The position numbers and the translations under genes are program-made. Shown piece by piece: positions 16,242-33,185 of a DNA stretch of 64,000 nt. Within the stretch, counting starts at the first letter, position 1. The number at the start of each line of letters is the position of its first letter. The stretch covers positions 211,730,001 to 211,794,000 of the forward strand of contig OZ024742.1 in the NCBI GenBank assembly GCA_964016885.1, written 5' to 3'. Source of the DNA: Eledone cirrhosa. Lineage: Eukaryota. Under the pieces are notes generated by a model. That model was not told the origin of the DNA. It did no database searches and saw nothing but the letters and a program-made list of their open reading frames with translations.

Positions 16242-19200
16242 GTTTAGCAAGGTTTTTTATATGAAATCGTGTGTCGAAACAGATATTGTTATACTTGGGG
16301 AGGGTCATATTTGCGTAATATTGCCAGAATTAATAACAGAACACACTCACTGTTTGGTTGGTTTTCGCTTCTCGCTGTCTTTTATATCTGCGATCTAACT
16401 TACTCGGTCCTCAATGTTGCCATTGACTGACCGGCTAATAATAGAAACGTTAACCACAGACACAGCAACAGTGACCACAGTAGTAATAACGGTAACAATA
16501 CGAACAACAACAACAATAACCACAGTGGTAATAATGGAAATAGTACATGTAGCAACATCAACAAAAACAAGAAACATAATAATAGTAACAACCACAATGG
16601 TAGAAATAACAGTAACAACAACAACAATAACGGTGAAGTAAACAACAATACATCTAGCAACCATAACAATAATAATAATGCTAATGATAGAAACAACAAC
16701 AACCACCATGATAACAATAATAGCAACACACACAACTATGACGATAGAAATAACGACAACCCCTTAGAGAAACTATTTTTCAACCCAGCTGACAAAACAT
16801 ATAAGATGGGTAATATCTATCCTACTAGGTTACCCTTTAATAAAAGAGTTTGCATACCACAGCAAATAGATGACGAGACGGAGGCACAGTTCACCATAGC
16901 TAGAAATAAGATTAGACAGGTATACTATGAGACAGAGCAGACCAGAGGCCCAACAACTTGGGAGAAAACCTGTAGAAGGCTTGGTTAGCCTCAAGCAGCG
17001 CACAAGGGATGGTGAGGTAGTGTGTCTACCCACAGATAAGTCTGGTAGGATGTCAATAGATAGCATGCCGAACTACATCGAGGCAATGCAACCCCACATC
17101 ACCAACACGAGCGAAGTTGCACAACTAACACACGATGGGAGAGAAAAAATCCTCAACGCTCACATGATGATGTGGACTGACATCCTAAAGCCAAGCAGAC
17201 GCACTGCCAACAACTTCCAGGCGTCTAACAATGGCATACCGCCCTTGTATGGGCTCCGCAAAGACCACAAGACAGTCGACGACCCGACAACAGGACCACC
17301 AACAAGACCCGTATGCGGAGCTAATATAGCTAGCAACTACAGGATCCCCTACTTCCTCTCAATGGTTATACGCCCCATAATCAAGATGTCCCCAGATGTA
17401 TGTGAAAGTACAGAGGACCTCCTCAGCAGAATCAGTGAGTGCAACAAAAACAGGAGCCTATCCAACTGCATAATAGGCAGCATGGATGTGGTGTCACTGT
17501 ACCCATCCATTAACATTGATTTTGCTGTGAAAAGATGTGTGGAGATGATCATTGAGAGTGAGGTGGAGTTCTGCGACGTCGACACAGACGAACTGGGCCT
17601 CCTACTTAGACTTACCTACGACACTGACTACCTAGACAGCCATGACCTTAGATGTTTCTGCCCTAGTAGACCTATAAGAGGTAGACCCCCCACCATAACC
17701 TCAATGGCTAAAAAGACTCCCATAGGAAGGTGGATTGGGTGGACCAAAGCTATACGGACCCCCCAAAACACTGATCAGGTAAGAAAAATGGTCGCACATG
17801 CAATAGGGGCTAGTATCAAAACTACCCTAAAGGGCCACATATTTAAGTTCAATGAGAAAATCTACACCCAAAATGAGGGAGCAGCCATCGGCGTCAGCAT
17901 AGCTGGTGATGTTGCCAACCTTTTCATGGTATGGTGGGAAAGGAGACTTAAAGATCTCCTGAATGAAAGCTCCATAGACCTCATCATGTACTCTCGTTAT
18001 GTAGACGATATCAATATAGTTATAAGAACACCCCCACTAGAGAGCACTAACAAGTTTGATTTAGAACGTAGCACGATGGAAAGCATCCAGCAGATAGCTA
18101 ATTCCATACACCAGAGTATAACTGTAACTATCGACTTCCCTTCCAAACACCCTAACAATAGACTACCTGTATTAGACACAGAACTCTGGATTAACACTAT
18201 AGACGAGAGAGCCCAAATTCTCCACTCACACTATGCTAAACCCATGGCCTCCAAATACCTGATACTCAAAAACTCAGCAATGTCCAGTAGTGCTAAGTTT
18301 AATATTCTGATCGCAGATTTGGTACGAGTGATGAAGAATGTGTCCAGCATGTGCGACCCAACAGAAATGGAAGGACACATCCAACACTTCATCAACCGCA
18401 TGCAGTTCTCTGGCTACAACCAAAGAGACAGAGTCAGAGTATACGAAGGAGCCATGGAAAAGTATAAGACCCTCATAGAACTGGACATGAAAGAAATTTG
18501 CCCACTATACAGGAGCAAATGATGGAATAGCTTAGATAGGGCTAGACATAAGATAGGGAAGGCCACATCATGGTACGACAACCAGAGATATCAGAGTGTC
18601 ATGTTTGTGGACGCCACCCCTGGAGGAAATTAGCTAACCAGTGTAGAAAGGCCCTGAGAAAGACCCACTTAAAAATAAAGGTGGTAGAAAAGCCAGGAAC
18701 CACCATAAAATCCCTGATCAGCAAAACCTACCCTTTTAAGAAAACCCACTGTACCAATAGGAAATGTATCATATGTAAGGTGAACCCCCGGATAAACTGT
18801 AAAACTAGAAACGTAGTCTATAGCATAAGATGTACAGAGGGTACTTGCAGAAACATGACAACAACATACATAGGTGAGACAGCTCGTAGCATAGGTGAAA
18901 GGATAGACCAACACTGGGGGGAACTAAAAGGACGAAAAAACGGGTCAGTACTATACGAACATGCTAGACAACAACATGACGGTAACATAGACAACATAGA
19001 AATTAGAATAATATCTAAACATAGGAATGACCCAGCAGATAGGCAAATCAGAGAGGCCAGTGAAATAGAAATTAGAAGACCAAAGCTAAACAGAAAGAAT
19101 GAGTGGAACAACAACAACACCCAAACAAACAACACTGACCTAAGAGAAGTATAAATAAGTAAATAAAATAAAATAAAATAAAATAAGATAAATAAATACA

Positions 19201-19677: not shown

Positions 19678-19740
<63 letters not shown>

Positions 19741-19772
19741 AGATCAAAAGATGGTTAAAGGAGTTCCATATA

Positions 19773-19839
19773 TTTTATTATGCGCATTTCAAAAACAAAC
19801 ATCATCAAACAATAATATTTGCGTTTTCATCAGATAAAA
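19773..19839 (-). ncRNA. Type-I hammerhead ribozyme (pLTR, inverted arm of PLE2)
   Basis: Exact reverse complement of the motif at 21023-21089. Confidence 0.88.
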
Positions 19840-21022
19840 CAGGAGAACATGATATGAAGGCTAAAAAAACACTTGTTGATAGTGCAGTTTTAAATCAACA
19901 TATGAAAAGTGGTTTTAGATTGATGTGTGATATTGGGAAAAATATTTTATTTAGAGAGGGGGGGGAAGAAAAGGATGAAAAGGGAAGGAGATGAGAGGGA
20001 GAGATGGGTGATAGAGAGAAAGAGATAGTTTTTATAACTGAGAGGAGATATATTTTATATAGAGGGGTTGAAAACCGTTGGAAGATACTGTATAAATTAA
20101 AAATTTTGAAAATTAACGAAGGGAGGATATGTGCGAGGAAAATATATTTTATTTAGGGAGGGGGGGGGGTGGAAAGGATGAAAGAAAGGGGAGGAGATGA
20201 GAGTGAAGGTGGAAAGGGAGAGATGGGTGATAGAGAGAAAGAGATAGTTTTTATAACTGAGAAAAAGATATAATGTTTTAATATAGAGAGGTTGGGAACC
20301 GTTGGAAGATAATGTATAAATTAAAGGAATTTGAAAATTAACGAAGGGAAATTATGTATGAAGATAGAGAGAAAAAAATAATAATTGTGGGTGAATATTC
20401 TAACGTCAATTTCAAAATTAGCAAAGAGAAAAAAAGTTTATGTGTAGAAGGATTTGAGAAAAATAATGTGAAGTTAAAGTTTGTATATTGAATTCATATG
20501 TATTAATAATGAGTTCGTTGATGGGGAGAAAAAAATAATAAATTAAGGATGAAATTGAGATTAAAAAGATTTATGATAGAGAGAAAATAATAATGATTGC
20601 GGATGAATACTCAAAATGTCAAAAACAAATGTTATTGTTTTACGAGAAGATAGAATGAGGGTAATGAGTAAACGAGTATTATAGAGTGTATAATGCCCTT
20701 TAAAGTAAGGTAGATGGGTATATATCGCACATATCCTCCCTTCGTTAATTTTCAAAATTTTTAATTTATACAGCATCTTCCAACGGTTTTCAACCCCTCT
20801 ATATAAAATATATCTCCTCTCAGTTATAAAAACTATCTCTTTCTCTCTATCACCCATCTCTCCCTCTCATCTCCTTCCCTTTTCATCCTTTTCTCCCCCC
20901 CCCCTCTCTAAATAAAATATTTTTCCCAATATCACACATCAATCTAAAACCACTTTTCATATGTTGATTTAAAACTGCACTATCAACAAGTGTTTTTTTA
21001 GCCTTCATATCATGTTCTCCTG

Positions 21023-21089
21023 TTTTATCTGATGAAAACGCAAATATTATTGTTTGATGATGTTTGTTTTTGAAATGCGCATAATAAAA
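21023..21089 (+). ncRNA. Type-I hammerhead ribozyme (5' pLTR of PLE2)
   Basis: TTTTAT-CTGATGA-stem II-GAAA-TGCGCA-TA^-ATAAAA; predicted cleavage after 21083. Confidence 0.9.
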
Positions 21090-21295
21090 TATATGGAACT
21101 CCTTTAACCATCTTTTGATCTTATATTATGCATACTCTAGTCCCACAAACTGTAGAGTGCTTCTTATCCGATATCTGCATTGCTTTATTGTACTACAATA
21201 AAACTCACCTCCTACATTAACTTGCTCCTTAACGGTTGAGCGCTTACTCTCATATTGGATACCTTTTGATGGTCCTTCACCTCTTCTTCTACAAC

Positions 21296-23698
21296 ATGGA
21301 TTATTACAACATAACCAATTCAACTAAAGACATTCCTATACCTGGTAAATCTGAATTCACCAAACTTCTTATTGAAAAAACAGACTCCTTCGTAAGAAGA
21401 CTTAGATGGACAGCCTATTTCTATGACCAGCGCCTAAAAGGGAACTTTCATACCAAAGAACACAATTTCCTCGATCATCTTTTTAATTCTAGACGAAATC
21501 CTCCTTCCAACAAAAATCTAGCACAATTCGAGGAAGAATTAACTAAAATTATAAAAAATCTTAAATTCAAGAGATACCCTTACAAAGGACAAGAGCACCT
21601 TGTAAATCTCAAGAACACAATCTCTAACCTAAATTCCTCAAAAAATGTTTTAGTCCACTCTGACAAAACCAATAACCTATATGGTATTTCCAAAGATAAT
21701 TATAACAACCTTATCCTAAAGGAACTTAGGAAAAAGTATCGTAAAACCAACCATGAAAATTTAGAATGCATAAACCTTGAAGCCTATGAGATTATGTCAA
21801 AACTTGGCATTGAAAAAAAGACAGAACCATTCCTCCCAAGAACTCCGAGGATAAATCTCAAGGATCACAAAAACAATTTTCGCACTGAACTACCTGTTAG
21901 ATTAATCGCCCCCTCTAAATCTGATCTGGGGGTTGTTAGTAAAGCCATCTTGGATAGGATTATCCCACAGGTTAGTTCTAATTGCTCTTCTTTAAACCTA
22001 AATTTATGGTTTGGTACTTCTGAAGTGATTGGCTGGTTCAACAAATTGGATAATAAAAACAAACTAAAATTTATTCAATTCGATATTGCCAGCTACTATT
22101 CCTCCATTTCGCCTTCACTTCTCAATAATGCTCTATCTTTCGCACTTAAATATTCTGACATCACCACAGATGAACTTCACATCATCCTCACCGCACGTAA
22201 AACCATCCTAGAGTTCAACAACGAATATTGGACCAGAGCCGATACCTCTAACAACTTCGACATCACAATGGGAGCATCCGATTCATCCCAATTGACTGAT
22301 TTAATTGGTATCTTCATTTTGAACTCTTTGAGTCGGAAAATTCCTCAACTTCGCGGTGGAATTTATCGTGACGATGGACTCTTTACTATCCTAAATTGCA
22401 ATATAGTTAAACTTAATATTATTAAGAACAATATACGTAATCTCTTTAACCAACATAACCTAAAAATTGAATTTGATAATAGTATCAAACTAGCTAATTT
22501 CTTGGATGTATCTCTTAATCTTGACACTGGCCTATATTACCCTTACCATAAAAACAATGAGAATCTTAATTATGTTAACTTTAAATCTAACCATCCTACC
22601 AATATCAAGAATGCTATAGTTAATAATATTGGAAATAGAATATCTAACATATCTTCTAATAAAAACATCTTTGATGCTAACGCCAATTACTATAATAACG
22701 CACTTTCTAAAGCCGGCTATCCAGATAAAATCAAATATAATAAAGAAACAAATTCTAGGAAAACTTACAGTAGAATATTTAATCATAACCATTCCAATAA
22801 TTTTAATAAAAGACCTAGATACAAAAACATAATCTGGTATAATGCTCCTTTCTCCATCTCTATTAATAACAATATTCCTAAATTATTTTTTAGTGCCTTA
22901 AATAAATGCTTCCCTCCCTCACATATCTATAGTAAAATATTTAACAAACACACCATCAAATTTTCGTATTCTACATCCTCCAATATTTCCAACATCATCT
23001 CTAAACACAACAACAAAATATTAAATACTAAATCTCTTCATTCCAATATTGAATTTCATAATAACAGTATTAGTACTCCCGACGTCATTGTAAACCCTAG
23101 GCTAACTTCTGTAAACCCAAATGCAACGTCAAACACAACTTCGCTAAATGTTCATAATCCAACTCTAAATCAAGAAACTATTATTCCTATTATTCCTATC
23201 GCAAACAACTTCTCCAATCCAATTCCTTCTATAGATAACACTAGATCACTCATTAATAATCTCTCTAATTGCAACTGCCGCATTAAAAATAAATGTCCTC
23301 TCAACAACCATTGCCTCGATAAAAACTTAATTTATGAATGTAAAATTATAACTAGCACCAATTCCTTCACCTATTTTGGCTCCACTTCCACCTCTTTTAA
23401 AGCTCGTCTCTATAATCATCATTCATCTTTCAAATACAAACTTAAAAGAACTAACACTGCTCTCTCAGAACTCATATGGTCCTTAAAAGACAAAAACATT
23501 AAATATAACATCTTTTGGAAAAAGATTTCTTCTGCATCCTCATACTTGAACAGCTCTCTATCTAAAATCTGTAATCTCTGCCTAAATGAAAAATTTACCA
23601 TTATCTCTAACCTAGAATCCATAATAAATAGACGCTCAGATTTGTTTTCTATCTGCCTGCATAAATTCCATAGAACTTTTCACAAAGTATACAGTTAA
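21296..23698 (+). CDS. Intact PLE RT + GIY-YIG endonuclease polyprotein (~800 aa)
   Basis: Uninterrupted ORF; KDIPIP, SDKT, FDIASYYSSI, TMGA, YRDDGL, CNCRIKNKC, LIYEC...YFGST...RLYNH and CNLCLNE...CLH motifs. Confidence 0.93.
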   Translation: MDYYNITNSTKDIPIPGKSEFTKLLIEKTDSFVRRLRWTAYFYDQRLKGNFHTKEHNFLDHLFNSRRNPPSNKNLAQFEEELTKIIKNLKFKRYPYKGQEHLVNLKNTISNLNSSKNVLVHSDKTNNLYGISKDNYNNLILKELRKKYRKTNHENLECINLEAYEIMSKLGIEKKTEPFLPRTPRINLKDHKNNFRTELPVRLIAPSKSDLGVVSKAILDRIIPQVSSNCSSLNLNLWFGTSEVIGWFNKLDNKNKLKFIQFDIASYYSSISPSLLNNALSFALKYSDITTDELHIILTARKTILEFNNEYWTRADTSNNFDITMGASDSSQLTDLIGIFILNSLSRKIPQLRGGIYRDDGLFTILNCNIVKLNIIKNNIRNLFNQHNLKIEFDNSIKLANFLDVSLNLDTGLYYPYHKNNENLNYVNFKSNHPTNIKNAIVNNIGNRISNISSNKNIFDANANYYNNALSKAGYPDKIKYNKETNSRKTYSRIFNHNHSNNFNKRPRYKNIIWYNAPFSISINNNIPKLFFSALNKCFPPSHIYSKIFNKHTIKFSYSTSSNISNIISKHNNKILNTKSLHSNIEFHNNSISTPDVIVNPRLTSVNPNATSNTTSLNVHNPTLNQETIIPIIPIANNFSNPIPSIDNTRSLINNLSNCNCRIKNKCPLNNHCLDKNLIYECKIITSTNSFTYFGSTSTSFKARLYNHHSSFKYKLKRTNTALSELIWSLKDKNIKYNIFWKKISSASSYLNSSLSKICNLCLNEKFTIISNLESIINRRSDLFSICLHKFHRTFHKVYS

Positions 23699-24874
23699 TA
23701 TTCAATTCTTTATCAATTTAGAATCTTTTCTCAAAGGCACATATACATACACCTCTTTAAAATATACCCATCTACCTTACTTTAAAGGGCATTATACACT
23801 CTATAATACTCGTTTACTCATTACCCTCATTCTATCTTCTCGTAAAACAATAACATTTGTTTTTGACACTTTGAATATTCATCCGCAATCATTATTATTT
23901 TTTCTCTCTATCATAAATCTTTTTAATCTCAATTTCATCCTTAATTTATTATTATATTTTTTTTAATATATACTCATATATTCTTTAAAATATACCCATC
24001 TACCTTACTTTAAAGGGCATTATACACTCTATAATACTCGTTTACTCATTACCCTCATTCTATCTTCTCGTAAAACAATAACATTTGTTTTTGACATTTT
24101 GAGTATTCATCCGCAATCATTATTATTTTCTCTCTATCATAAATCTTTTTAATCTCAATTTCATCCTTAATTTATTATTATTTTTTTCTCCCCATCAACG
24201 AACTCATTATTAATACATATGAATTCAATATACAAACTTTAACTTCACATTATTTTTCTCAAATCCTTCTACACATAAACTTTTTTTCTCTTTGCTAATT
24301 TTGAAATTGACGTTAGAATATTCACCCACAATTATTATTTTTTTCTCTCTATCTTCATACATAATTTCCCTTCGTTAATTTTCAAATTCCTTTAATTTAT
24401 ACATTATCTTCCAACGGTTCCCAACCTCTCTATATTAAAACATTATATCTTTTTCTCAGTTATAAAAACTATCTCTTTCTCTCTATCACCCATCTCTCCC
24501 TTTCCACCTTCACTCTCATCTCCTCCCCTTTCTTTCATCCTTTCCACCCCCCCCTCCCTAAATAAAATATTTTTTTCCTCGCACATATCCTCCCTTCGTT
24601 AATTTTCAAAATTTTTAATTTATACAGTATCTTCCAACGGTTTTCAACCCCTCTATATAAAATATATCTCCTCTCAGTTATAAAAACTATCTCTTTCTCT
24701 CTATCACCCATCTCTCCCTCTCATCTCCTTCCCTTTTCATCCTTTTCTCCCCCCCCTCTCTAAATAAAATATTTTTCCCAATATCACACATCAATCTAAA
24801 ACCACTTTTCATATGTTGATTTAAAACTGCACTATCAACAAGTGTTTTTTTAGCCTTCATATCATGTTCTCCTG

Positions 24875-24941
24875 TTTTATCTGATGAAAACGCAAATATT
24901 ATTGTTTGATGATGTTTGTTTTTGAAATGCGCATAATAAAA
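24875..24941 (+). ncRNA. Type-I hammerhead ribozyme (3' pLTR of PLE2)
   Basis: Identical to 21023-21089. Confidence 0.9.
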
Positions 24942-25065
24942 TATATGGAACTCCTTTAACCATCTTTTGATCTTATATTATGCATACTCCAGTCCCACAA
25001 ACTGTAGAGTGCTTCTTATCCGATATCTGCATTGCTTTATTGTACTACAATAAAACTCACCTCCT

Positions 25066-25124
<59 letters not shown>

Positions 25125-26260: not shown

Positions 26261-26355
26261 GCTGGGTTGAAAATTTGAAATTTGTTCGCTTCGCGCGTGA
26301 TATATACACATACATATAATATAAGATCAAAAGATGGTTAAAAGAGTTCCAAGTA

Positions 26356-26420
26356 TTTTATTATGCGCATTTCAAAAACATATCATCATGGGATGATATC
26401 TGCGTTCTCATCAGATAAAA
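26356..26420 (-). ncRNA. Type-I hammerhead ribozyme
   Basis: Reverse complement reads TTTTAT-CTGATGA-GAACGCAGATATCATCCCATGATGATATGTTTTT-GAAA-TGCGCA-TA-ATAAAA. Confidence 0.85.
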
Positions 26421-26837
26421 TAGGGAGATATGATATGAAGCTTAAAAAACACTTGTATGAAGCTTAAAAAACACTTGTAAAAGGTAAGGAAGAGGAAGAA
26501 ATGAGAGTAAAGGATGGTGGGGGAGGAGTATAAGAAGGAAGGAATTATCTATTATCTTCCAACGGCTTTTTAATTTCTCTTTGAGACAATATATATATTT
26601 TTTCTCAGTTGTAAAGGCTATATCTCTCTCTCTCTATCACCCATCTCTCCCCCTCTCTCATCCTTCCTTCTTATACTCCTACCCCACCATCCTTTACTCT
26701 CATTTCTTCCTCTTCCTTAACTTTTCCAACCCCCGCCTCACTTTTTCCCAATCTCATACATCAATCTTAATTTATTTTTCATATGTTGATTTAAATCTTC
26801 ACTATTCACAAGTGTTTTTTAAGCTTCATATGTCTCC

Positions 26838-27201
26838 ATGAGATGGACTTCATAACAACACATCACCTGCTATTTCTTCCTTGCTGCGCCAACAGTGGCC
26901 AGCAAATCTGAGTCTCTGTCCGCGTATTGACCTGCTGATAGGTGGTATATTGCCATAGAGATCCTTATTTGCTCGGTGTTCCCTCCAAGACATGTTTAAA
27001 ACAGCGCGGAGCCCCGTCTAGCTTTTTCTCCAGTTTCGACGTGGAGCAAGAAACGCTGGTCGTCCCAAGAAGACATACGTCAAGCAACTCGAGGACGATA
27101 CTGGATGCACTGCGGAAGAACTGGCAAACGCTATGAGAGACAGAGATGGATGGAGGAAGCGTGTCGTAGAAAACCGAGCAAGCTCGACCTGATGATGATG
27201 A
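26838..27201 (+). mobile_element. RTE 3'-end fragment nested in the pLTR
   Basis: GRPKKTYVKQLEDDTG...AMRDRDGWRKRV*, (TGA)n tail, atgtctcc repeated on both sides as a probable TSD. Confidence 0.85.
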
Positions 27202-27216
27202 TATCATGTCTCCCTA

Positions 27217-27283
27217 TTTTATCTGATGAGAACGCAGATATCATCCCATGATGATATCTGTTTTTGAAATGCGCATAATAAAA
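27217..27283 (+). ncRNA. Type-I hammerhead ribozyme
   Basis: TTTTAT-CTGATGA-...CAGATATCATC ccat GATGATATCTG...-GAAA-TGCGCA-TA-ATAAAA. Confidence 0.9.
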
Positions 27284-27407
27284 TACTTGGAACTCTTTTA
27301 ACCATCTTTTGATCTTATATTATTTATACTCCAGTCCTACAAACTGTAGAGTGCTACTTATCCGATATTTGCATTGCTTTATTGTGCTACAATAAAACTC
27401 ACCTCCT

Positions 27408-27449
<42 letters not shown>

Positions 27450-27450
<1 letters not shown>

Positions 27451-30350
27451 AAATATTACTAAAACCATATTTATTTCATTATACATATTTCAAGGACACC
27501 AAAACAAATTATGGTGCGCTTTCATCAGATAAAATATAATATAGATCAGTTTTATAAACAAATATTGACATACCCTTAAAAGAATGCGACCATGTCTGTT
27601 GGAAGCTCCCGGATAGTGGGGTTACTAATTTTATTATTGGTCTATTATGCAAATTAGTGTCGGAGAGGTTTAAATCCCATACATTTAAATTAAACCGTTG
27701 GAATAAGGAGAAAAAGGAGAAAGAAAGAAAGAGAAAACCTAAAGAAGGAAAAGAAAAGAAAAGGAAAAGAAATAGGAAAAAAACAAAAGAGAGAAAACCC
27801 TAAGTATTAACGTAGTTTTATGAAATGATGAAGCGAAAAGATAAATATATAGTTGGATGAGTTAGCGTGAATAGATAAATAAATAAATAGCAGTAACCGG
27901 AGAAATTTATCTATTGTTTAAATTTGATTAAATTATTGAGATCTATAAAAGTTAAAATTAAAAATTGAGATCTATATTTTATTAAAAGTATACACACACA
28001 CATATATATATACACCAGCAAAAAATATTATTAAAATATATGTTATTATTACATAACCTTACATAAATTTATTATTAATCATCAACCAACAATTTATTAT
28101 TAAATTTTTAATTAACAATAAAACTTATAAGAAATGACAAAAATGTTTAAAATGTAGGAATGTTCAGAGATTTTTTGAAGAAAAACTCTTCTTAGTAATA
28201 GCAATACAGCGTGAGGGGAAATTAATTGATTTATTTGTAATTTAGATAGTTCTAATGATTAAATGTTATAAAAGTTAAGATGATAAAAAAATTAAGATTA
28301 TAAGAGAACCTTATATTATTTTATAGTAAGTTATAAAATTTATATATTTTATAGATCCACCTGTTATATAGTTGTGACTGTTAAAATATGAGTTTGTTTA
28401 CTATAACGTCTTAATATTTAAAGTTTTTCTTAAGAATATATCTAAAGCATAAACCGTAAAAAAACTTTTTTACACGAGTTCATTCATAGAATGCATTCAA
28501 AATTATACATTTCGATATATATAGACCCACATATACATAGACATACATGGATACGCACATATTCACGCACATATATATACATACATATACACACATACAT
28601 ATACATATATATATATATATACAAAATACATACTATAAAATAAAATAAAATAAAAATGTGAGTTATAATTTTAAAAGGAATTATATTTTTAAGCAATGTA
28701 ATTTTTAAGCAATGCAATTCCAAAATATATAGCTTTTTAAAAAATATATAAGAATACATAGAAAAAACACAGTATAAAATATGGATTATAACTTTTTATG
28801 TATCCATCAGAGGAATTAACCAAAAAAACCCTTTTTTAAAAAACTTTTAGTATGTTTATCTTAATTTTTTATATATCCATTTAAAATAAAAAAAATTTAA
28901 GTATGTCTATCTAGAAGAATTTTCAAGGAAAATGTTTTCCTCATTTAAGAGAGTTTTTGGCAGTCGTACGGAGGAATCTAGTGATTTATCGATAGGTGTA
29001 ATAAGATGAGTTATATATTACATTTTAAATTTATATTTAAACGTTGAATTCAATCTATGTTTGCAGCAACTGAAAAGATTGTTTCTTAGATTCACAGAAT
29101 TTTTGCCCTTTAATATAAAGAACATTTCCTCTATACAAAGAGCGCAATTTTCGGAAGTGGAATTGCATGGAGGAGCTTTGGAGATAATATTCCAAAGTAA
29201 AGAATAGTTAATGTTCTTTGATTTTAGATCCTATAGTAAGCTAGATAGAGAAGTTGAAGATTTTTTATTTATATTCGTAAAAGAGCATTTATGGTTATTA
29301 AAACGAGATTTGAAGTCTGTGGAAGTAGAACCTACATAATTAAATGAATTTAAATTAGTTTTTACATTACAATTATATACTATATTTTTAGCTAAACAAT
29401 TGTTATTTAACGGACAATTATATTTGTTTCTACAGTTACATTTATCAAAATTCAAGTTACTAGGAGCCGTGTTATTAAATTGGATATTGCTGGTGTTGTT
29501 AATGGTATTCTGGTTAGGTTTTAAGTTTCTATTATTAATTCTATTAATATTCTGCGCTAAATTACTGGTGGTTGAATAAGTTAATTTTATAGTATGTCTA
29601 TTAAATATTGAGTAATATCTGTGTTCTAGGGAAGCATTTGTCAAGAGCTTTAAAGAATAGTTTAGCTATAGGAGTTTTAATATTTAATGAGAAAGGAGGA
29701 GCGAACCATAATATATTCCTAGTTCTATTTCTTTTTTTGTTTATCGAATTATTATAAGGTTTTCTATTATAGTTGTTAAAATTATGGTTAGTTGTTATAT
29801 TATTATTATCATCAATGTATTTAATTTTATTACTATATCCAGCTCTACCCCACGCTTCGTTGTAATATTGCGCTTTATCATAAAAAATATTCTTATTAGC
29901 TGAAATTCTAGAAATGCGTTGCTGTACAGAATTTACTATAGTATTTTTAACGGATCTGGGGTGATTGGAGTTAAAATTAAGGTAGTTTAAGTTCTCGTTT
30001 AATTTGAGAAATGGATAATGAAGACATGTGTTAAGGTTTAAGGTTACATCTAGAAAGTTAAAGAAAAGAAATTATACAATTTTTTAATTACCTTAATTTT
30101 AAAGTAGAAATAGAGAATAATTATAAAATTCTCTATTTCTACTTTAAGATTAAGGTAATTAAAAAATTGTATAATTTCTTTTCTTTTCCTATTTAATTCA
30201 CAGTTATTATTTTCGATAAGTAAAAGCATATCGTCGCGATATAAACCTCCGGTCATCTCCGGTATTTTTCTGTGTAGAGTATTATTTATAAAAAGCCCCA
30301 CAAGATCCGTTACCTGGGCGGAATCCAATGATCCCATAGTGACATCGAAA
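27450..30350 (-). mobile_element. Decayed 5'-truncated PLE (paralogous to PLE2)
   Basis: FDVTMGSLDS, GGLYRDD, CNCRNKYNCPL and IVYNC...YVGST...RFNNH in ORFs 30050-30373 and 29231-29644; pLTR with hammerhead at the left end. Confidence 0.9.
27474..27534 (-). ncRNA. Type-I hammerhead ribozyme
   Basis: Reverse complement reads TTTTAT-CTGATGA-AAGCGCACCA..TGGTGTCCTT-GAAA-TATGTA-TA-ATGAAA. Confidence 0.8.
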
Positions 30351-31090: not shown

Positions 31091-31657
31091 TCTGTGTATA
31101 TATTTTTTCCTCATTTCGTGGGTTGTCTCCCCTTCCCGCTTCGTGTCGCTATGATAATTCCTCAGTCAAAAACTGCTGGAATTTCAAATTTAGCGGTCAT
31201 TCGAGGTGAGAGAGACCAACTTTACGGACATGATTTTTGACAGCGGTAAGCAATTGTTTTCTTATATCAATGTTTAATGGGCTTCCACTGACGATTTATA
31301 AGTGCCCACCTAAATATATTCTTACATGAATATATATTAGGCTTCTACATAAACTGGAAACATTCTCTCAAACTTGTAGAAAACTTATAATGAAACAATT
31401 GTTTGGAAAGAGAGATATACTTTAACTTTAATTATATCTCATAAAATAATACAACTGGTTTTTCCACATTATACATATTGTTAGCACCCCAAACACTTAA
31501 ATTGGGTTTATATTTTTATATAACCTAATGTTTGTTGAGTGAGATGGTTACCAGTCAGAGTTTAGCTTTAAACTATCTCTGTTATTGTATTAAATATATA
31601 TATATATATATATACGATATTAAATAAATGGAAACTATATTTATAAAACCATATTTA

Positions 31658-31719
31658 TTTCATTATATATATTTCAGGGATATCATATTAACAACATGCT
31701 ATGCCTTCCTCAGACAAAA
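31658..31719 (-). ncRNA. Type-I hammerhead ribozyme
   Basis: Reverse complement of 32940-33001 with one stem-II change. Confidence 0.78.
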
Positions 31720-32939
31720 TACAATATAGACAGTTTTATAGATAAATAGATTTGACATACCGTACAACATCGACTTGTATTTGAAAAGTTGAATTGGCAG
31801 TGAAAAAATTGTAAACAGAAAGAAAGAAAGAGAGAAAAAAGGAAAGAAAGACAGAAAACGAAGAAAAAGAAGATAAATAATTTTTAGCTTTATCTGTTTT
31901 CGACTCTGATGCTTGTGGTGAACTTGGCAATGTATTGTCAATTAATTTTGAAGGGTTGATCTTTGTGGTTTATTTTTATTATTGTAGTATTTTCTAATAT
32001 TTTTATTTTTAATATGTAATATTTTTAATATGTAATATTTTTTCGTAATATTTTTTAGTTTTCTATTTTATTATTATTTATTATTATTATTATTGTTATT
32101 TTTTTGGTTTTTGTTTTTGATATATTTTTTTATTAATATATTGAAATCTGCTCTCTATTTCTGCTTGATAGATAATCATGTAGAGTAAAGACAAGAATAG
32201 TAGTAATATAGACTCTATATATATATGTGTATATATATACACATATATGTATACTTAAATTTTTATAGCACAATGAGAATGTTTTCCGTGTGAACTTAGG
32301 GTTTGCAGAGTTGATCATGTAAATTCACATCGATGTTTGTAGTTATCATATAAACATATGAATTTTAAAACTAAACATAAGATCATTACTTTTCACACAT
32401 TATGGATACGTGTCTCATTCAGGAATACTGATATTTACAATATAGTGCCTGATTTTTATACATACTAATACTTCTACATTAAAACATAGGGTTTTTATGC
32501 CTCGCCTATGTCTGGTTACTTTTCATTTTTCTCTCTATATAACAGCTGGTTTCTCTCCTAACCACATATATCTCCCTTACATTAATACTAGAGCTAAATA
32601 AATAAATAAATAAATAAATGTATCATTGATACGTTTACTCAACGGATGTCCAACTACCTATTTCTCTCTATATATATCTATCTCTATCTATTTCCTCTCT
32701 CTATATATATCTCTCTCTGTTTCTTTACATGAAGTTCTTCTCTTTATCTATCTTTCCATCTCTCTATTTTGTTCCATGCATTTCTTCTTTTTTTTTTTTT
32801 TTTCTGTCTTTCTTTCCTTTTTTCTCTCTTTCTTTCTTTCTGTTTACAATTTTTTTCACTGCCAATTCAACTTTTCAAATACAAGTCGATGTTGTACAGT
32901 ATGTCAAATCTATTTATCTATAAAACTGTCTATATTGTA

Positions 32940-33001
32940 TTTTGTCTGAGGAAGGCATAGCATATTGTTAATATGATATCCCTGAAATATATATAATGAA
33001 A
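32940..33001 (+). ncRNA. Type-I hammerhead ribozyme
   Basis: TTTTGT-CTGAGGA-AGG..CATATT gtt AATATG..CCT-GAAA-TATATA-TA-ATGAAA. Confidence 0.8.
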
Positions 33002-33130
33002 TAAATATGGTTTTATAAATATAGTTTCCATTTATTTAATATCGTATATATACTCCAAATACTTGTCGAGTGTTTTTATATCAGTTATAAATATTTACTA
33101 GTTGTAACCCAACAATTTAAATATAACTTT

Positions 33131-33185
<55 letters not shown>

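Follow-up and report, generated by a model that had tools for sequence, protein, structure and literature searches.

A young Hydra-clade family of Penelope-like elements in Eledone cirrhosa, with insertions that suggest twin priming on one RNA and a circular template for full-length copies

The reverse transcriptases (RTs) of Penelope-like elements (PLEs) are the closest kin of telomerase. PLE insertions are known to carry a tail on one side only (PMC8557442), which in an element of Anolis is accounted for in vitro by two RT start sites, the later steps of insertion being described there as unvalidated (PMC11167929). The function of hammerhead ribozymes in PLEs is described as unclear in a survey which characterizes the Hydra clade by a DKT motif, an RWK motif, a CxCx5C linker, CxxC and CxH motifs around E and N, and the lack of a CCHH motif, and which notes that its elements are generally short (<3 kb), a descriptive rather than a defining trait (PMC8557442). 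No biochemistry of this clade was found in the literature searched. Here we analyse a stretch of 64,000 nucleotides (nt) from Eledone cirrhosa (contig OZ024742.1, positions 211,730,001 to 211,794,000; hereafter the window, numbered from its first letter), which harbours at 19733-25067 an insertion that almost certainly represents a new young family of this known clade. As the family offers thousands of near-identical ends, its copies record the insertion reaction, and this record points to two fixed start sites, each used once per insertion, to a single template for each event, to a capped start, and to a second class of templates without a 5' end.

The insertion consists of a 991-nt inverted arm (19733-20723) placed head to head with a 4343-nt arm (20725-25067) between (TA)n tracts, the longer arm amounting to one unit plus 491 nt. 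Positions are also given as c, the offset from the hammerhead cut site, with c=0 at 24935, or at 21083 for the upstream copy; short fold-back copies of the family are called stubs. The features of the locus, including the pseudo-long terminal repeats (pLTRs), the open reading frame (ORF) and the 3' untranslated region (UTR), are as follows; pLDDT denotes the predicted local distance difference test score.

19678..19732, unstranded: left (TA)n target, read from the sequence; boundary uncertain by 1-3 nt
19733..20723, minus: inverted arm, 5'-truncated; outer end c=+46 (short end), inner end c=-945
19773..19839, minus: hammerhead copy 1, type I, with its minus-strand cut after 19779
20725..21215, plus: upstream partial repeat (5' pLTR), c=-356 to +132, continuous with the unit
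20959, plus: putative capped transcription start, c=-124, twin position 24811; based on the stub pile-up and an untemplated G
21023..21089, plus: hammerhead copy 2; cut site 21083/21084, palindromic stem III
21133..21160, plus: hairpin A of the leader, 4 nt past the +46 end; in the studied copy with a private C>T at c=+55
21223..21243, plus: hairpin B, likewise in the leader and only there (not in the 3' pLTR), 8 nt past the +132 end
21296..23698, plus: 800-aa ORF with N-terminal region, RT (YRDD at 357), thumb, CxCx5C linker, GIY-YIG endonuclease, CxxC and CxH
23036..23263, plus: Asn-rich insert, residues 581-656, predicted disordered (pLDDT <50)
23699..24874, plus: long 3' UTR with two internal duplications, 23754-23961/23982-24187 and 24359-24574/24583-24776
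24875..24941, plus: hammerhead copy 3; cut site 24935/24936
24982..25067, plus: 86-nt tail, c=+47 to +132, which forms the long end of the insertion; a copy of hairpin A lies at 24985-25012
25070..25122, unstranded: right (TA)n target, read from the sequence

A preliminary description of this locus had claimed an intact ORF, three identical hammerheads, near-identical pLTR copies, an inverted plus partial-tandem structure and (TA)n flanks, all of which are borne out. The ORF occupies a single stop-to-stop frame (21233-23698) with its ATG at 21296 and no internal stop; the hammerheads are 67-nt type I motifs, two on the plus strand and one in the inverted arm; 20725-21215 differs from 24579-25067 by 2 substitutions and 1 gap in 491 positions, and the inverted 19733-20723 from 23990-24981 by 1 substitution and 4 gaps in 995; and (TA)n was read on either side. 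The plus-strand cut sites lie 3852 nt apart, a unit length that holds for the studied copy only, same-strand hammerheads elsewhere being spaced by 3638-3930 nt (n=30 in other loci). Such units fall outside the <3 kb described for the clade because the 3' UTR takes up 1.2 kb. In the studied copy the +46 and +132 starts correspond to 21129 and 21215, and the predicted joint of a circle to 24935-21084. The leader (20959-21295) contains nine upstream ATGs, three of them past the cut site, through which cleavage or circle formation might alter translation of the ORF.

The single ORF shows KDIPIP at residue 11, DKT at 123, CNCRIKNKC at 659, CNLCLNE at 759 and CLH at 787. Thus the KxIPxP, CxCx5C and CxxCxxE..CxH motifs on which a Hydra-clade identity had been proposed are present, joined by DKT and RW(T). 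The sequence RLRWT at 35-39 is a variant of the RWK motif rather than an exact match, retaining RW with T in place of K; the published Hydra-1_Crog carries RWR at this position (PMC8557442). The endonuclease domain, assigned by the GIY-YIG motif IYE..TYFG at 679-695, is C-terminal and without CCHH, and there is no N-terminal endonuclease. This position and the DKT motif would place the element outside Naiad and Chlamys, with their N-terminal GIY-YIG, DKA and IFD, and outside the retrozymes lacking long terminal repeats as well, given a unit that encodes an 800-aa ORF and stubs that are inverted pairs with variable junctions. Searches with the ORF recovered no Pfam family and no significant match among PDB sequences, and none of 168 retrieved proteins contained any of five short motifs taken from published Hydra proteins. 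A structure model of the protein (pLDDT 86.6) had RTs as its best matches in a fold search, with several telomerases among the top ten. The closest database relatives are 35-43% identical. A quick RT tree put the ORF inside a 42-row DKT/YRDD group, separate from 21 rows related to a neighbouring PLE (SH-aLRT, the Shimodaira-Hasegawa-like approximate likelihood ratio test, 100); similarity to the query served to assemble this group, and the tree contained no published reference, 5 rows without YxDD having been dropped. Its nearest neighbour in the tree is a sister family of the same genome, whose ORFs have 738-750 aa as against 800 aa and share 53% amino acid identity with the studied family. 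Two residues private to the studied copy sit in unconserved columns, and N-rich inserts are known from PLEs of Adineta (PMC3846280).

The claim of youth is sustained by the own-genome candidates (3199 in all), of which all 40 that were scored, the studied copy included, are full-length ORFs at ~99% identity. An open ORF was found in 17/20 first candidates and in 33/39 wider stretches, two sets that overlap in part; mean divergence among 39 fetched stretches is 0.66%, and eight of these (seven loci) with identical ORFs form the youngest cluster, with the studied copy outside it. A 35-mer over the ribozyme has 2339 exact matches, a figure for one haplotype that counts arms rather than insertions. 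Within the studied insertion 3 substitutions occur in 1486 paired sites, which at a rate of 0.0036 per million years (PMC13282606) would date it to roughly 0.3 million years ago, a loose figure in which RT errors are also counted. Substitutions among copies (shared, 19 synonymous and 12 non-synonymous; singleton, 41 and 58; p 0.06) suggest purifying selection as a trend only. The long census arms share no GT-AG deletion that would indicate an intron; their recurring indels are a 226-nt duplication and 26/28-nt blocks. In three runs labelled as other organisms (X4, X5, X7) the ORF appears at ~99% identity in pieces of 200-660 nt, from a close species or by transfer. Contigs and RAD reads compared with the loci revealed no empty site and nothing that spans a flank, the TA tracts being skipped in them.

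The ends of the insertions follow a simple rule. The sample comprised 39 stretches around full-length matches and, on one contig (C1), the loci behind the first 100 entries in the list of 35-mer matches. In 70 of 72 typed head-to-head pairs (of 80) one end lies at +46 and the other at +132 (binomial p 1e-18), and with 3 overlapping hand-read loci and 6 further pairs the total comes to 78/81. The longer arm may carry either end (39 vs 26, with 5 equal). The sister family obeys the same rule in 32/32 typed pairs (33 fetched), with an identical 86-nt offset. A TRCTCY-N-GAGYGC hairpin motif is found at +50 and +140, and in the sister family at +56 and +146; hairpin B folds weakly (z -0.17), and since the leader folds no better than shuffled sequences the support for these hairpins is positional and comparative. 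An older relative in the window at 26315-27410, 86-89% identical, is likewise an inverted pair with a +46 left end and a +132 right end, with other DNA between; at 27223 its stem II changes, judged by eye, preserve pairing. The sister family is itself present in the window at 31616-33131, and elsewhere (loci L132-L194) many of its ORFs are open and its ribozyme 35-mer has 3475 exact matches.

The two arms of an insertion also appear to share their template. Several pLTR haplotypes segregate in the family, long copies included, and both arms carry the same one in 55/57 informative pairs (permuted mean 19%, maximum 39%), while the 5' and 3' pLTRs of one arm agree in 27/28. The studied insertion has a private 26-nt deletion at c=-628 in its 3' UTR which is present in the inverted arm too and in none of the other fetched loci. 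Rare variants are mostly (84/92) not common to both parts of an insertion, as is expected from later mutation. Taken with the end rule, these patterns make twin priming on one RNA probable.

Short arms cluster at c=-122 to -129. Genome-wide, a start at -124 preceded by a non-reference base was counted in 3290 matches; this base is G in 1682 and A or T in 1608, so that G makes up 51% against 23% expected, and these counts take in related subfamilies. Where the sequence is continuous, the base before -124 is other than C in 8 cases and G in none of them, and in 125/125 read-through arms this base is C. A start at +1 preceded by a base other than A was seen in only 36 matches, truncations preceded by A not being counted, and of 12 inspected 2 are point changes and 1 is an internal deletion. 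An extra G is known from L1 as the mark of a copied cap. The untemplated G before -124 is likely such a copied cap, and as the stubs stop at -124, often with G, and not at +1, they would have been templated by capped RNA with an uncut ribozyme. The few arms that end at -171/-172 perhaps reflect a minor start or microhomology. Short arms of the sister family stop near c=-133 to -144.

The long arms behave as a separate class. Among 50 census pairs, with L090 and L106 (diverged and complex) left out, 30 are short-short, 17 long-long and only 3 mixed, against 23.5 mixed expected, and a count as low as 3 was reached in 0/200,000 permutations. A stop at -124 is seen in 35/72 first passes vs 1/31 second passes (p 3e-6). 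Moreover, if hairpin B marks the +132 start, its leader-only position implies that an arm both long and +132-ended required template sequence lying upstream of the leader; as a typical linear transcript is without such sequence, the template of the 4.3-kb arm would have had a whole unit upstream and no blocking cap. An RNA circle would provide this, and we lean slightly towards it as the template of the long arms.

The ribozymes themselves have CUGANGA and GAAA cores, stems I and II, a NUH site and a palindromic stem III, the 8-nt palindrome AUGCGCAU (A15.1/U16.1 included). Within a monomer stem III has a pair probability of 0.1%, whereas the duplex of two palindromes is worth -10.5 kcal/mol, so folding energies support a stem III of the dimer type. 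The preliminary description had called such dimer dependence established for minimal PLE hammerheads, which overstates the case, as these cut weakly even as dimers (PMC4209133). A search of Rfam gave no hammerhead match, only weak miRNA-type chance matches.

Based on these observations we propose, with somewhat more confidence in the whole than doubt, a mechanism of twin priming on one RNA in which full-length copies derive from a ribozyme-made circle. An RNA polymerase II start at c=-124 would yield a capped RNA with a hammerhead, hairpins A and B, the ORF, the 3' UTR and a second hammerhead; the RT-endonuclease would then cut the (TA)n target and use both exposed 3' ends as primers, at the two hairpin-marked leader sites +46 and +132. 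If the RNA is uncut, each cDNA would run off the cap, giving the observed pattern of 170/256-nt fold-back stubs. Alternatively, two hammerheads would pair via the palindromic stem III and cut, and the unit would be ligated into a circle, as RtcB circularises retrozyme monomers (PMC7229834); from the same starts, synthesis would cross the joint into the 3' UTR and ORF and go round again to produce seamless arms of more than unit length. Finally, as the junctions attest, one cDNA end is linked to the other in head-to-head orientation. We suggest tentatively, and with a little more doubt than confidence, that the hammerhead thereby acts as a switch, uncut capped RNA giving only dead stubs and only the dimer-cut, ligated 3.6-3.9-kb circle giving full-length copies. 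The 3852-nt unit RNA which the preliminary description expected to be released agrees with the plus-strand spacing of the studied copy, and in circularised form it fits the long copies well; a linear released unit cannot have templated these copies, and the large stub class from capped uncut RNA had not been foreseen.

Several observations weigh against this mechanism. An A-U pair or no pair occupies the position where G10.1-C11.1 is typical, and minimal PLE hammerheads are weak cutters even when dimeric (PMC4209133). In the Anolis element hammerhead mutants were without effect on insertion in vitro, and no reads start or stop at the cut site (PMC11167929). Three insertions break the end rule (L083, L098 and L054): L098 has two long ends and arms discordant in haplotype, and L054 (with L198) forms a perfect palindrome of 4.5 kb whose ends are both at +46, perhaps a fold-back duplication or an assembly artefact. 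The second-pass set consists mostly of loci chosen for a full ORF, the first-pass set being a different sample. Haplotype agreement cannot tell one RNA from two RNAs of one locus. At L088 (L088:2342) a G-marked -124 end is joined to ORF sequence with the deletion of 1.3 kb, evidently a template jump from the presumed cap, so that template jumping does occur. Lastly, 2/7 loci of the youngest identical-ORF cluster are multi-unit arrays (L051/L052 and L053), which could serve as linear masters.

The jump at L088 bears on the best-surviving alternative, in which twin priming takes place on one capped linear RNA and the long arms result from transfer of the growing strand out of the leader onto the homologous 3' pLTR. 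The terminal redundancy that this calls for (c=-124 to +46/+132) exists, and cleavage is dispensable in vitro for the Anolis element (PMC11167929). However, a jump made anew at each pass predicts many mixed insertions, of which 3/50 were seen, a second-pass stop at -124, seen in 1/31, and some G at -125 in continuous context, seen nowhere; we therefore hold strand transfer to be unlikely, and equally so its corollary that the hammerheads merely hold the ends together or do nothing. The arrays, in turn, favour long arms copied from transcripts that start upstream of multi-unit tandem master loci and read through them, with neither circle nor jump. Arrays of at least 2 units do exist in the youngest cluster, but they number only 2 among ~37 full-length loci, several pLTR haplotypes occur among the long copies, and since linear copying can only shorten arrays something must regenerate them, which leaves such masters a rather improbable source. 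Still less probable, and decidedly so, is that each end derives from its own RNA, both transcribed from one locus (a stem III-linked dimer, for instance), or that an intermediate was trimmed by the endonuclease. Co-transcribed RNAs would also agree in haplotype, the tail has been ascribed to endonuclease-mediated resolution (PMC8557442), and self-priming has been proposed (PMC3846280); yet a symmetric dimer gives no cause for 78/81 one-of-each ends, a similar hairpin lies behind each end in two families, and in vitro work has demonstrated that the tail is set by two RT starts (PMC11167929). Three further candidates fail outright: stubs as a self-amplifying miniature inverted-repeat transposable element, by junctions that vary per locus and arms that follow the full-length haplotypes; the G at -125 as an allele, by its absence from continuous context and the C of 125/125 read-through arms; and linear cut RNA as template, by ends 46 or 132 nt past the cut site, where almost none start. 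Twin priming with a circular template for the long arms is the reading we retain.

If the hammerhead is indeed such a switch, this would be an autonomous animal retrotransposon replicating via a protein-coding, ribozyme-made RNA circle, with the present family as an intact reagent to show that; the circle idea of 2014 can now be tested at exact coordinates and with an intact ORF.

Other PLEs surround the insertion. It lies in (TA)n just downstream of a different, broken PLE at 16900-19154 (DKSG, YVDD, C-terminal endonuclease), the neighbour considered in the tree, whose protein shares 71% identity with one from Octopus vulgaris. A degenerate Hydra-like element with its own hammerhead at 27528 occupies 27480-30345 on the minus strand. 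An annotation of O. vulgaris counts 31 PLE families as recently active, and a relative may be among them (bioRxiv 10.64898/2026.07.22.740005).

The PLE literature searched, mostly open papers with the older Drosophila Penelope work set aside, held no one-of-each rule, same-template arms, cap G or two template classes; that older work may contain parts of these findings. With Hydra-1_Obim of Octopus bimaculoides (Craig et al. 2021, PMC8557442) the studied family shares a single ORF, DKT and an RW-type motif, and with it and the Hydra clade likewise CxCx5C, CxxC and CxH, the lack of CCHH, a hammerhead and a (TA)n target; the ORF is colinear by eye with the printed first ~400 aa. The two are nevertheless different families: RWT and 800 aa with an Asn-rich insert stand against RWK and 709 aa, a unit of 3.6-3.9 kb against the generally <3 kb of the clade, a clear pLTR/inverted structure against a listing as 'no pLTR', and an 86-nt tail against 30-40 bp, while the hammerhead differs by a long stem II and an even 8-nt palindrome (PMC8557442).

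Poseidon PAc of Anolis carolinensis (Frangieh et al. 2024, PMC11167929) offers the closest mechanistic likeness, in that RT begins at two internal sites downstream of its hammerhead, which set the tail, and both strands of an AT-rich target are cut and extended. It belongs to another clade, and its starts lie next to each other within the ORF (tail 30-40 bp), unlike the present starts, which are 86 nt apart in the 5' leader; the available parts of its account hold no one-of-each rule, cap signature or template classes. As in the minimal hammerheads of PLEs (Cervera and de la Pena 2014, PMC4209133), type I motifs with a palindromic stem III lie in both pLTRs, and the circular template proposed there for more-than-unit tandems is the reading favoured here, a proposal that the studied copies appear to support at the population level. 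Animal retrozymes, by comparison, are non-coding and 170-400 nt long (PMC7229834), whereas the studied unit is autonomous and 3.85 kb in length.

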